Notes: generated by a model not told the origin, from the letters alone. Shown: positions 21,168 through 40,931, counted from the stretch's first letter. The stretch: 64,000 nucleotides of DNA from Escherichia phage NJ01 (NC_018835.1); one strand, 5' to 3'. Made by a program: numbers and translations.

Positions 21168-21386
21168 ATGAAAATGATGAAACAAGCTGCATACGGTTTA
21201 ATCTGTTTAGGTGCAGGTGTTGTGGTGTCAACCGCAGTTCCTGTAAGCGCAGTTCATCCATTAGTAACTGTCCCTGCTCCAGTAGAGAAGCTTAGCTCTC
21301 AATGTAAGCAGAGAACAATTCAAAATAACCTAGTTGTTATTTGTCCTGATGCTGAATCTAACGCTCTGAGAAAGATACTACCTTAA
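21168..21386 (+). CDS. small membrane/secreted protein (72 aa), possible holin
   Basis: N-terminal hydrophobic segment AAYGLICLGAGVVVSTAVPVSAV; immediately upstream of lysozyme. Confidence 0.35.
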   Translation: MKMMKQAAYGLICLGAGVVVSTAVPVSAVHPLVTVPAPVEKLSSQCKQRTIQNNLVVICPDAESNALRKILP

Positions 21387-21414
21387 TTTAAAGGGACCAC
21401 AAAGGAGGTTAGAA

Positions 21415-21906
21415 ATGGATAACGCCGCATTGCCACCTGTACAACTAAACTTAAGCCCAGCTGGAATGGAATTCATCATGAAGCATGAGGGTATGAGAAC
21501 CAAGGCTTATAAAGATTCCGCAGGTATCTGGACTATATGTGTAGGGGCTACGCGCGATATGAATGGTTATCCGGTTAGACAAGGATTAACGTATTCTATA
21601 GAGGATTGTCTAGCTCTGCTAGATAGAGACACACAAGACTCTGTTCGTGCTACTCAGAAGAACATAAAGGTTCCTTTACTAGTTCATGAGTTTGATGCAC
21701 TCACTTCTTTCAACTTCAATGTTGGCAGTGGTGCTTTGAGAACATCTAAGTTAAGGAAGGTTATCAATGGAGAAGTGAAAGGGGATGTTTATTCCGAATT
21801 TCTTCGTTGGGATAAAATAACGGTCAGGGGAGAAAAGCAGAGAAGTCAGGGTCTTCATAACAGAAGGGTTGCAGAAGCTGATCTTTACACTGAAGGTAAA
21901 TATTAA
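21415..21906 (+). CDS. lysozyme (GH24, T4-lysozyme-like muramidase)
   Basis: HEGMRTKAYKDSAGIWTICVGAT matches the catalytic-Glu / xAYxDxxGxxTIGxG signature. Confidence 0.75.
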   Translation: MDNAALPPVQLNLSPAGMEFIMKHEGMRTKAYKDSAGIWTICVGATRDMNGYPVRQGLTYSIEDCLALLDRDTQDSVRATQKNIKVPLLVHEFDALTSFNFNVGSGALRTSKLRKVINGEVKGDVYSEFLRWDKITVRGEKQRSQGLHNRRVAEADLYTEGKY

Positions 21907-21918
21907 TGGAGGTGCCTT

Positions 21919-22722
21919 TTGGCTATCGAAACTAATGCGGTAGTTATTACCGACTTAAACCCACTCTATCCTAGAGACAGGGATTACATCTACGAAGGGG
22001 CGGCTCAAATCCGCCTCATTAAACAAACACTACAGAATACATTCCCCAATGTTACAGAACCAGTTGATATAGATTCTGATACCTTTAAGATTATGTCAGA
22101 GAAGCTCAAGTTTACTGGCGATGCAATGGATGTTGGTGGTCTGATGATTAAGAACGTCACTCCGGGGACTGGTGACAGGGATGTTGTTACTAAAGGTCAG
22201 ATGGAAGCGTTCATGAAGAACTGGATGGAGAATAAGCTCTATCGAATTGGCTCTTACTATATCACTGAAGAAGATATTAACCCCGGTGACTCGATCTCCC
22301 TAGGGTTTGGTTCTTGGGCTAAAGTTACTGGTGTTATCATGGGTACTGGTGTTGTAAACCCTGATGGCTCTGTTCCTAATGCTCAGAGGGTTGAGTTCCA
22401 AGCAGGTGGTACTGGTGGTCGTGTCTTCAATACTATTCGTACAGAGAACGTACCTTTGATGACAGTTAATGGCTCCAGCTTCTCCTTATCCAGCAACACC
22501 CATAGTCACAACATGGTGTTTGGTCGTGGAGATGCTAGTGGTCATAACAGCTCGCCTAACTGGTACAGTCCGGGTGGTGGTTACAGTCAGAGAACAGAGA
22601 ATGATACACACTCTCATACAATCTCTGGTAGTGTGAGTCTTGGTCGTGATGACATTTCTCGTCAACCTATCAACACTTTGCCACCATTCAGATCGGCTCA
22701 CATTTGGAGACGTATTAGCTAA
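21919..22722 (+). CDS. tail fiber / receptor-binding-like protein (267 aa)
   Basis: Gly/Ser-rich C-terminus with HSH repeats (NTHSHNMVF, NDTHSHTIS); position among tail genes. Confidence 0.4.
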   Translation: MAIETNAVVITDLNPLYPRDRDYIYEGAAQIRLIKQTLQNTFPNVTEPVDIDSDTFKIMSEKLKFTGDAMDVGGLMIKNVTPGTGDRDVVTKGQMEAFMKNWMENKLYRIGSYYITEEDINPGDSISLGFGSWAKVTGVIMGTGVVNPDGSVPNAQRVEFQAGGTGGRVFNTIRTENVPLMTVNGSSFSLSSNTHSHNMVFGRGDASGHNSSPNWYSPGGGYSQRTENDTHSHTISGSVSLGRDDISRQPINTLPPFRSAHIWRRIS

Positions 22723-22731
22723 GGAGGAATT

Positions 22732-38874: not shown

Positions 38875-38875
38875 A

Positions 38876-39412
38876 TTATTCTCCTAACAGCTTACGAATT
38901 TCACTACGGAAATTATCATACTCTTCAGGGTATTCAAACCCGCATTCGAGAAGAGCATAATGAACAACCTTCAGCAAATCCTGAACCTTATTCTTATCTT
39001 TGTGTCGATAAGCGTATTTGATCATATTGGTTTGTTGGAAGTTCAACTGAGGGTTTGCATGATAAAATTCAACAGGCTGAATGATTTTAGATTCAGGGTT
39101 ATAGTGTGCACCACCAACCATAGTGTCTAAAGCTGGACTCCTTTTGCTGGTTTGTTCAGTTGTAGCTTTAAAGCTGACTACAGGAACAGAGGAATAAATT
39201 GGATACTCTTCACCTACTGGCGGCTTTACCATCAACTTTTTCATTGCAAATCGAATTTCTGTATCAGAGGAACATGAAGAGATTTCTTCAACAGATTTAC
39301 GATAACTGTCAATAACTGCACGTAGCATGGAGACTGTCTTAGTCTTCTCTTTTAACTTCTCTGTTAATACAATAACTTCTGCTCTTTTGGATTCAAACTC
39401 GGTCATTTCCAA
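38876..39412 (-). CDS. DUF3310-like phage protein
   Basis: GGAHYNPESKIIQPVEFY...NMIKYAYRHKDKNKVQDLLKVVHYALL recalled as DUF3310 pattern. Confidence 0.4.
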   Translation of the reverse strand: MEMTEFESKRAEVIVLTEKLKEKTKTVSMLRAVIDSYRKSVEEISSCSSDTEIRFAMKKLMVKPPVGEEYPIYSSVPVVSFKATTEQTSKRSPALDTMVGGAHYNPESKIIQPVEFYHANPQLNFQQTNMIKYAYRHKDKNKVQDLLKVVHYALLECGFEYPEEYDNFRSEIRKLLGE

Positions 39413-39795
39413 TCTCCAGTGATTTCCATATCTGCTTTATCTCCTTTCTTAGTAAGGAGGATTGCTGGTTTATTCTTACTCTTCATATACTCAAACATGT
39501 GCATAGAACCTCTTGATTCCCCATCCCAGAAGACTATCACTGAATCTGCATACTCACCCATGTCTACGTTTCGAAGTATCCCAGCCTTTTTGCCGAGAGT
39601 ATTCCACGATGGGATGAAACGTTTAATTGGGATATCATTATGCTTAGCAACAACTTCTCCGTGAAGATCTGGCCCTCTAGCACCACCTGACACTACTTCT
39701 GAAATGAGCTTAGGGATTTCTTCTGGAAGTAAAGTCCACATCTGAGTAAAAGAATGCCAGTCTATCGACCGGCTTCCTGCGATTATTACTTTCAT
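39403..39795 (-). CDS. SLOG-family (DUF2493/YspA-like) protein
   Basis: [10 protein letters not shown]...SGGARGPD...RNVDM...[12 protein letters not shown] matches Rossmann-like SLOG pattern. Confidence 0.55.
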
Positions 39796-40436
39796 GTAAT
39801 CAATCCTTGAAACTCTTCTTTATCGAAATGCTTCTCTACCACATACTCATACAGATCTTTTAATTCTGCATAACGTCGGTAGAAAGTTCCATGTGACATG
39901 CCAATAGTTTTCTGAATGTGGTCATGGGGAATACCCAAGAAAATCATTGAGAACATATTAGCTAACTTCTGAGTATCCATCGTATCACTTAAATCTTGGA
40001 AGAAGTAGAAGATACGAGATTCCATGAACGGGTCGCCAACAGAGTCTTGCTTATCCATAGCAATCTCTAAAGGACTATCCACCATATCAGGAGTACGGAA
40101 CATATCAGCCTCTGGAATAGAGTAGATACGACGGTCCCCTACAGTCTGCCTATTTGAGCGTATAGACCAGATAATGTTCTTGACTCGATAAGTCATATGC
40201 TCTTGGTCTTTCTCGTCCTCTAGGACTCTCTCATCCTGCTTAGCGAAGACAAATCTCCAAGCGTTCAAGAGCACTTCCTGTGCCACATCTTCTGCTTCAT
40301 GGTAATCTCTGATATCGTACATGAAGAACTTGTGAACCACTTTCCAGTTCACTCTGTAAAACTCTTCATAGTTTGAGATGTACTTAATAGGGATTCCATG
40401 AATGCGATATCTTGTAGGTGTTGTCTTCTTCGCCAT
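39792..40436 (-). CDS. phage-encoded ECF-like sigma factor
   Basis: [13 protein letters not shown] resembles sigma region 2.2; C-terminal helix-turn-helix-like [16 protein letters not shown]. Confidence 0.5.
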
Positions 40437-40696
40437 TATTCTATTCCACGCTCTTTCAGAGCTTCTAACAATCCATTGTGATTAGCAGCACATTCTGTGT
40501 ACTGGTCCTGATACCACTCCAACGTAGTGGCTAGTGCCTTTCCTTGAGCACTCTCTAAAAGAGGCAGGTCAACCCTACATTCAGCTTTTAGGTTTGTTGG
40601 TAAGGGCATCGATTGCCTGCTGCTGTCGCTCGTTGAACATGCGGACATAGTCATCACTAGCGCAGACATTATAAAAAACTGGTTTAGTTTTCTCAT
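40436..40696 (-). CDS. o-spanin-like lipoprotein, overlapping i-spanin
   Basis: Signal plus lipobox-like LVMTMSAC; starts inside upstream gene in another frame. Confidence 0.45.
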
Positions 40697-40931
40697 AATG
40701 CATCTCTTTATAAATGGTTTCCGTGTTCTTCTTCCAGCTAGATAAACCGGTAAGAACTCTCTGAGCAACTTCATCAGCTGCCTTACTTCTTTCAATCTCT
40801 AACTCTTGTTGATGTTTCTCTTTGTCTAGATTACTGCTGTCTGTTTGATATTCGTTAAACTTCATACCACCAAAGAATACAAGAGCTGAGAAAACGATAA
40901 ACCCTAAGTTATCACTTAACGTGTTTTGCAT
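40581..40931 (-). CDS. i-spanin-like protein (start moved to ATG at 40931)
   Basis: MQNTLSDNLGFIVFSALVFFGG N-terminal TM then coiled-coil; GGAGA RBS; track start 40955 lies inside terminator. Confidence 0.45.
   Translation of the reverse strand: MQNTLSDNLGFIVFSALVFFGGMKFNEYQTDSSNLDKEKHQQELEIERSKAADEVAQRVLTGLSSWKKNTETIYKEMHYEKTKPVFYNVCASDDYVRMFNERQQQAIDALTNKPKS

Follow-up and report, generated by a model that had tools for sequence, protein, structure and literature searches.

We analyzed a stretch of 64,000 nucleotides (nt) from Escherichia phage NJ01 (NC_018835.1), hereafter the window, with regard to its genes for host lysis: a putative holin, a GH24 lysozyme, and a two-component spanin pair. 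We consider it very likely, with a rough probability of 85%, that these genes represent the standard Kuravirus lysis equipment placed in two transcription units, a late one on the plus strand that holds the holin candidate and the lysozyme among tail genes, and a middle one on the minus strand that holds the spanins next to the gene of the phage sigma factor. This reading builds on direct observations, namely of what the genes encode, of their topology signals, of where promoters and terminators lie, and of conservation, and the domain matches of the lysis genes lie far beyond chance. The features concerned are the following, with positions counted from the first letter of the window.

21168-21386, plus strand: putative class III holin of 72 amino acids (aa), bitopic, with the N-terminus inside and the C-terminus outside (phrog_11161, hydropathy, label in phage Paul).
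21415-21906, plus strand: GH24 (T4/P22-type) lysozyme of 163 aa, a soluble cytoplasmic endolysin (PF00959; no signal-anchor-release (SAR) or signal segment).
40581-40931, minus strand: i-spanin of 116 aa with an N-terminal membrane segment, a helical periplasmic domain, and one cysteine, C90 (phrog_1152).
40436-40696, minus strand: o-spanin of 86 aa with a signal sequence and the lipobox MSAC (lipobox, Paul homologue, family of Kongari 2018).
39792-40436, minus strand: phage sigma factor, homologue of gp36 (phrog_1740, E 2e-45; weak Sigma70_r2 match).
40950-40967, minus strand: intrinsic terminator between gene 40 and the i-spanin start (7-bp GC-rich stem, UUCG loop, U6).
40989-41735, minus strand: gene-40 homologue of 248 aa, first gene of the P40 unit (phrog_6599; synteny with phiEco32 gp40).
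15495-15503, plus strand: phage-sigma (gp36-type) promoter element TAATGTATA, equivalent to the late promoter P13 of phiEco32, upstream of the adaptor gene (gene 13).
41795-41803, minus strand: phage-sigma element TAATGTATA, equivalent to the middle promoter P40 of phiEco32, upstream of the gene-40 homologue.

A megablast search with positions 20000-42000 returned Escherichia phage 172-1 as the best match (97% identity), followed by MN05, phiEco32, SU10-type phages, and other Kuravirus (Gordonclarkvirinae), with 86 phage records at a query coverage of at least 80%. Gene order is collinear with that of 172-1 and phiEco32 and, judging by its sequence, the window belongs to a Kuravirus, that is, a phiEco32-like podophage. 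All four open reading frames (ORFs) that a preliminary description of this DNA had assigned to lysis were present, with coordinates exact to the base. The same description had placed a GH24 lysozyme and a small upstream membrane ORF among tail genes, which the PF00959 match and hydropathy bear out, and an overlapped spanin pair about 19 kilobases (kb) away, bracketed by a terminator and the sigma factor gene, which we recovered with the bracketing elements at 40950-40967 and 39792-40436 and a measured distance of 18.5 kb from the end of the lysozyme gene to the end of the o-spanin gene. Lying this far apart, on opposite strands (holin candidate and lysozyme on the plus strand, spanins on the minus strand) and behind different promoter elements, the lysis genes do not form a contiguous cassette of the lambda type.

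The lysozyme is recognized by the Pfam family PF00959 (Phage_lysozyme) with an E value of 4.4e-32 and a score of 111.5 bits vs. a cutoff of 22.3, and it matches the solved endolysins 8app, 7m5i, P21 R (3hde), and P22 (2anv) with an E value of 3e-27. The catalytic motif of the T4 E and P21 R family is defined as Glu-x8-Asp-x5-Thr, an arrangement present in the translation as E25-x8-D34-x5-T40. The protein has neither a hydrophobic N-terminus nor a SAR or signal segment (19-residue hydropathy maximum of 0.82), and there is no in-frame start upstream. Given that the enzyme lacks an export segment and that its ORF cannot be extended upstream, it is most simply read as a soluble, holin-dependent enzyme, and these features lend no support to the label "SAR-endolysin" that the MN03 and MN05 records carry.

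The 72-aa protein has a full-length match to phrog_11161 "holin" (E 4.8e-50), a label that derives from the phiEco32 prediction. Its ORF is preceded by a good Shine-Dalgarno sequence and encodes a single hydrophobic segment, LICLGAGVVVSTAVPVSAV, at approximately aa 7-29 (Kyte-Doolittle 19-residue maximum of 2.13). Based on hydropathy, the topology is that of a class III holin, with this one segment, an N-terminus that bears positive charge (MKMMKQ), and a C-terminal part whose two invariant cysteines agree with a periplasmic location. A gap of 28 nt separates the gene from that of the lysozyme, which follows it on the same strand, and the late element at 15495 precedes both. In a hydropathy scan of all non-overlapping ORFs in the window, its product was the only small transmembrane (TM) protein adjoining a lysis gene, and all other TM-bearing ORFs were located in the early and middle blocks, none of them near a lysis gene. 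We regard a holin as the likeliest role of this protein and a probable one. An AlphaFold model (predicted local distance difference test score, pLDDT, of 54) was too uncertain for a fold search, and a profile search of 1.8 billion proteins retrieved just two further small homologues, which have no known function. As for the genomic context of the remote homologues, a metagenome scan gave Kuravirus-like loci only, and two viral-contig scans gave nothing usable.

The i-spanin matches phrog_1152 "Rz-like spanin" (E 2.4e-38) and carries the N-terminal hydrophobic segment LGFIVFSALVFFGGM as a membrane anchor. It is 94% identical to the Paul protein annotated "i-spanin" and 36% identical to i-spanins of Felix O1-like phages. 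Its AlphaFold2 (AF2) model has helices at 34-76 and 83-111, with low confidence (pLDDT 57), and was too uncertain for a fold search. In the o-spanin, the lipobox cysteine Cys20 is followed by Ser21 at position +2 (no Asp), sequence features that agree with sorting of a lipoprotein to the outer membrane, and two further periplasmic cysteines, Cys40 and Cys69, are present. The preliminary description had named this protein an o-spanin with its lipoprotein signal still to be predicted; the MSAC lipobox is in place and, in the 98%-identical Paul o-spanin, the GenBank record reports a LipoP SpII site between residues 19 and 20 with a score of 18.0. Cys20 and Cys69 are invariant in comparison with the o-spanins of the phages Mordin and Sasha. 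Cysteines available for disulfide formation are thus found in both partners (i-spanin C90; o-spanin C40 and C69). Such periplasmic cysteines are ubiquitous in two-component spanins according to the spanin census, in which phiEco32 was placed in both an i-spanin and an o-spanin family (Kongari et al. 2018). The two genes overlap by 116 nt (40581-40696), with the o-spanin starting inside the i-spanin gene in another frame and running beyond its end, which is the "overlapped" two-component architecture. Taken together, 40581-40931 and 40436-40696 encode a predicted Rz/Rz1-type spanin pair.

In the RefSeq records of 172-1 (21799-22059) and phiEco32 (22965-23225), the o-spanin is called as a 57-aa "hypothetical protein" from an internal methionine. 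This call, which drops the signal peptide and the lipobox, is repeated in a 2025 Kuravirus paper (174 nt); the full 86-aa ORF is intact in all, at 97-98% identity.

Temporal class and promoter data for phiEco32 are taken second-hand from three publications (PMC8948821, PMC9965538, PMC4281155). The phage sigma factor of phiEco32 recognizes a single element, tAATGTAtA, and six gp36 promoters have been mapped experimentally, before genes 6, 13, and 26 (late) and genes 40, 58, and 68 (middle) (PMC8948821). Against an expectation of 0.69, the window contains six exact copies of TAATGTATA. Four of them are located shortly before a gene on their own strand, and three of these four precede the homologues of phiEco32 genes 13, 26, and 40. 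Matches with one mismatch occur at chance frequency (22 found vs. 20.1 expected). Beyond the two elements listed above, the following features are relevant here.

32326, plus strand: phage-sigma element TAATGTATA before the gene 26 homologue.
48566, minus strand: phage-sigma element TAATGTATA before an ORF of the middle block.
21079-21096, plus strand: GC-rich hairpin with a UUCG loop, located after the distal long-tail-fibre gene and before the holin candidate (-12.6 kcal/mol, z -1.25).

The late element at 15495, which closely follows a terminator at 15442-15463, stands before the adaptor gene, and the P13-type operon comprises the adaptor and tail-fibre genes followed by the holin candidate and the lysozyme, so that the latter two lie inside the P13 late unit together with tail genes. 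The hairpin at 21079-21096 is not a canonical terminator because it has no U-tract on the plus strand. On the minus strand, the P40 element at 41795-41803 heads the operon with the spanins and the sigma gene. Gene 40 is followed by the terminator at 40950-40967 (-13.5 kcal/mol, z -2.4), which the Paul record annotates as well, and the spanins come next, with the sigma gene immediately behind them; the ATG of the sigma gene shares bases with the stop codon of the o-spanin (TAATG). RNA polymerase presumably has to read through this terminator to transcribe the spanins and the sigma gene, and published descriptions count the spanin/sigma block among the middle genes.

The two units as we picture them would operate as follows. 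In the late unit, the phage sigma factor would direct transcription from TAATGTATA at 15495 through the adaptor, the long-tail-fibre genes, the holin candidate, and the lysozyme, with the transcript continuing past the lysozyme into the short-fibre and nozzle genes. Lacking an export signal, the lysozyme would build up in the cytoplasm until the 72-aa protein, in its presumed function, permeabilizes the inner membrane. In the middle unit, transcription would proceed from TAATGTATA at 41795-41803 through gene 40 and the terminator to the i-spanin, the o-spanin, and the sigma gene. The i-spanin in the inner membrane and the o-spanin as an outer-membrane lipoprotein would form a complex that disrupts the outer membrane once the lysozyme has destroyed the cell wall. 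In the lambda Rz/Rz1 model, the spanin complex is restrained by intact peptidoglycan; by that model, early spanin synthesis would be harmless because the complex is held back until the wall is gone.

The two-site layout was found in 97 of 97 Kuravirus-like records. A search with the holin candidate gave 97 phage records, all of them Escherichia or Shigella Kuravirus-like phages, and the i-spanin and the o-spanin each occur in exactly 97 records at an identity of at least 60%. Gene order is the same around the most divergent homologue of the holin candidate, found at 58% identity on a metagenomic contig of 87 kb, namely fibre, small ORF, lysozyme, short fibre, nozzle, needle, DUF6453, and SLT. 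Genes, order, and spacing in phiEco32, Paul, SU10, and 172-1 are the same as in the window, with identities of 85-100% for the holin candidate, 99% for the lysin, 93-96% for the i-spanin, and 97-98% for the o-spanin. At equivalent positions, the Paul GenBank record (Center for Phage Technology) lists "holin class III," "endolysin glycosidase," a terminator, "i-spanin," and "o-spanin." One difference is that the macro-domain gene 37 parts the o-spanin from the sigma gene in phiEco32 and Paul, whereas the window and 172-1 are without it.

Several points weigh against our reading. The terminator ahead of the spanins leaves their route of transcription to be deduced, and their temporal class is read from their position in the middle block. 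The 72-aa protein matches no Pfam or NCBIfam family and has no detected homology to a validated holin, the searched literature yields no experiment on its family, and the putative holin role is argued from position, size, and topology. Moreover, in an alignment of 12 family members and the two remote homologues, a (V/T)xA motif directly after the hydrophobic segment is invariant (P25-V26-x-A28 within the group; VGA or TVA in the remote homologues), and the C-terminal tail is nearly invariant and the most conserved part of the protein, with invariant C46 and C59. This motif and the conserved tail would also fit a cleaved secretory peptide.

The alternative that survives best builds on these same observations. 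Instead of a holin, the 72-aa protein would be a small disulfide protein of the periplasm, either exported by Sec or tethered to the membrane, such as a lysis regulator, and release of the lysozyme would fall to a protein encoded elsewhere or of a kind not yet recognized. Retention of the motif even in remote homologues, the strong conservation of a cysteine-containing tail that would be periplasmic, the missing match to a holin family of Pfam or NCBIfam, and a searched literature that contains no functional test all speak for it. The hydrophobic segment, however, has an invariant face made up of Q6, Y9, G10, C13, and G17 (spacing i/i+4/i+8), a pattern seldom seen in a signal peptide destined for removal but typical of helix packing in the membrane, which speaks for a helix that is kept and contacts others there. 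The position of the protein as the sole TM protein adjoining the endolysin in the late operon, and its pairing with the lysozyme in every member, likewise argue for a holin. Small single-pass holins are also known, as illustrated by the topology of T4 T and by T7 gp17.5. On balance, we consider this alternative unlikely. We give a slim chance to its more specific form, in which the Kuravirus "holin," a name copied from phiEco32, is a periplasmic lysis regulator and the endolysin leaves by another route; if this were true, a large group of therapeutic coliphages would free a signal-less GH24 endolysin by an unrecognized route.

Two candidates that touch on the holin gene were rejected. The sequence TAATATATA at 21147-21155 could not serve as a private holin promoter, given that a start 6-8 nt downstream would fall past the ribosome-binding site and that one-mismatch matches are no more frequent than chance predicts. 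The DUF6453 protein (26763-27797, plus strand) was dismissed as an alternative holin, as it has no hydrophobic segment. This protein is called a "membrane protein" in RefSeq and PHROGs, yet its 19-residue hydropathy maximum is 0.84; its SU10 homologue, gp19, is not in the virion, and its gene is the third non-structural gene within the tail/ejection block.

With the two-unit arrangement as the preferred reading, the question of its origin can be addressed. The preliminary description had raised the possibility that a lysis cassette has been split, which holds only as a description of two sites; the layout is fixed in all 97 records. A recent break-up of a contiguous holin-endolysin-spanin cassette in this phage could draw on the fact that a homologous spanin family ends a canonical cassette in the 9NA-like phage Sasha. 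It is nonetheless very improbable: besides the fixed layout, which extends to the most divergent relative, the Sasha endolysin is unrelated to the window lysozyme, and the nearest i-spanins outside Kuravirus, those of Felix O1-like phages such as Mordin, are also detached and also located behind a terminator. In 7-11, a distant phage of the C3 morphotype, the tail site is occupied by unrelated genes, and the SU10 genome paper did not find the holin and the lysozyme in 7-11 and GAP52. Their absence from the tail site of 7-11 points to separate acquisition. The spanin family itself is common to Felix O1-like and 9NA-like phages. Given the fixed layout, the detached Mordin spanins, and the unrelated Sasha endolysin, nothing suggests that lysozyme and spanins were once neighbors, and comparisons with the Kuravirus-like records, Sasha, and Mordin gave no evidence that the two were ever adjacent.

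The preliminary description had also offered the lysozyme as a virion-associated ejection enzyme, with the true endolysin elsewhere. The SU10 lysin is identical to the window lysozyme at 161 of 163 positions (99%). In a cryo-electron microscopy study of SU10, the entries for ORF14 (holin) and ORF15 (the 163-aa lysin) read "in virion: no; detected by MS: no," MS being mass spectrometry, and in an earlier liquid chromatography-tandem mass spectrometry (LC-MS/MS) study of SU10, for which phages were precipitated with polyethylene glycol (PEG), CDS14 and CDS15 were absent, though DNA polymerase and the sigma factor were detected. Through this homologue, two MS studies thus argue against presence of the lysozyme in the virion. 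A different protein has the expected properties of an ejected enzyme.

27807-28589, plus strand: SLT-domain lytic transglycosylase, a virion-borne ejection enzyme (PF01464, E 2.7e-24; phrog_12507).

Its SU10 homologue, the transglycosylase gp20, is found in the virion together with gp21-24, and these proteins are no longer present after genome release, which by homology places the SLT protein in the virion. The ejected wall-degrading role considered for the lysozyme is, as far as homology indicates, filled by this separate transglycosylase, which would supply the wall-degrading activity of the virion. When 27 more ORFs of the window, among them those of every large protein without an assigned function, were scanned against Pfam, no further muralytic domain was detected, and the complete 172-1 RefSeq annotation, including approximately 13 kb beyond the window, contains no other lysis gene and no second cassette. 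Although the lysozyme gene is placed between tail-fibre genes, a virion role with the true endolysin elsewhere is extremely improbable in view of the two negative and independent MS studies, the dedicated SLT protein, the lack of another endolysin in the window or the complete 172-1 genome, and the holin-like gene immediately before the lysozyme, which is the usual endolysin context.

Among known systems, the window layout resembles those of T4, T7, and Felix O1-like phages. As in T4 (e, t, pseT.3/pseT.2), the endolysin and holin on one side and the two-component spanins on the other lie at separate loci, with the spanins among non-late genes; according to the spanin census, T4 has its spanin genes away from t and e (Kongari et al. 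2018). The T4 holin shares the single-pass topology with the N-terminus inside and the C-terminus outside. Differences are that the holin and endolysin genes of T4 are apart from each other, whereas those of the window are adjacent, that T has 218 aa vs. 72 aa here, and that the T4 spanins are of the "separated" type and those of the window overlap. T7 (3.5, 17.5, 18.5/18.7) is another lytic podophage with dispersed lysis genes, and a small single-pass holin gene lies right after its tail-fibre gene. In contrast to the window, T7 degrades the wall with an amidase that has a second function in regulating the phage RNA polymerase, and the T7 spanin genes are located between those of the terminase.

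The Felix O1-like Citrobacter phage Mordin has homologous i- and o-spanins (~30-36% identity) that are located apart from the holin and endolysin, with a terminator directly before them and a macro-domain gene a few genes downstream. Felix O1-like phages differ in being myoviruses with an unrelated backbone, and the neighbors of their spanins are rIIB and polynucleotide kinase instead of a sigma factor. In this Mordin neighborhood (2220-5028), the macro-domain protein is distantly similar to phiEco32 gp37 (25% over 130 aa), and these resemblances hint at a small gene neighborhood shared between unrelated phage groups. Lambda, with S-R-Rz/Rz1, and Sasha have the same parts, namely holin, endolysin, i-spanin, and o-spanin, and the Sasha spanins are homologous to those of the window at 34% identity. 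In both, however, all genes are adjacent in one late unit, and lambda Rz1 is fully embedded in Rz, whereas the spanin genes of the window overlap partly.

Further observations concern the regulatory elements and neighboring genes. Two copies of TAATGTATA have no corresponding published phiEco32 promoter that we could find: 27098-27106 (plus strand) lies within the DUF6453 gene, and 41867-41875 (plus strand) is in the intergenic region ahead of gene 40, where it is oriented opposite to the middle genes. GC-rich hairpins with a CUUCGG loop recur between genes at 15442-15463, 18867-18882, 21079-21096, and 40950-40967, that is, between late genes and before the spanins; of the four, only the two with a U-tract are terminator-like. 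The macro-domain (Appr-1-p processing) gene, which in phiEco32 (22502-22965) and Paul (21752-22215) lies between the o-spanin and sigma genes, is absent from the window and 172-1, and as a consequence o-spanin stop and sigma start overlap (window 40430-40445). The predicted sigma70 promoter for early expression of the phiEco32 sigma factor sits inside this missing gene. A sigma70-like match in the spanin overlap of the window (ATGAGA-17-TATAAT, 40696-40668) carries little weight, given that the region has 15 matches of this type vs. 14.5 expected by chance.

The nozzle or the short-fibre protein (22732-25749 and 21919-22722, plus strand) is labeled "N-acetylmuramoyl-L-alanine amidase" in some relatives (KP308307, PV591327). 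Given that only Big_2 Ig-like and Gp10_C domains are detectable in them, these labels appear to be annotation artefacts. Three ORFs of the early and middle blocks have N-terminal signal-like or anchor segments and no family, all on the minus strand: 4371-4736 (121 aa), 5220-5711 (163 aa), and 43815-43994 (59 aa). They could possibly encode envelope-directed proteins of host takeover or superinfection exclusion.

The two-site layout is ordinary and was already known from the Paul annotation, the 2018 spanin census, and the 2025 Kuravirus paper, in which vAPECPW12 has the same three coordinate blocks. Our results matter little beyond correct annotation: the 57-aa o-spanin calls in the phiEco32 and 172-1 RefSeq records merit correction, the labels "SAR-endolysin," "amidase," and "membrane protein" on neighboring genes in some records are unsupported, and the holin assignment in this widely used group of therapeutic phages is a prediction. 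For the biology of the group, the layout indicates that Kuraviruses, like T4, T7, and Felix O1-like phages, need no contiguous lysis cassette, and that they keep their spanins in the operon of the sigma factor.

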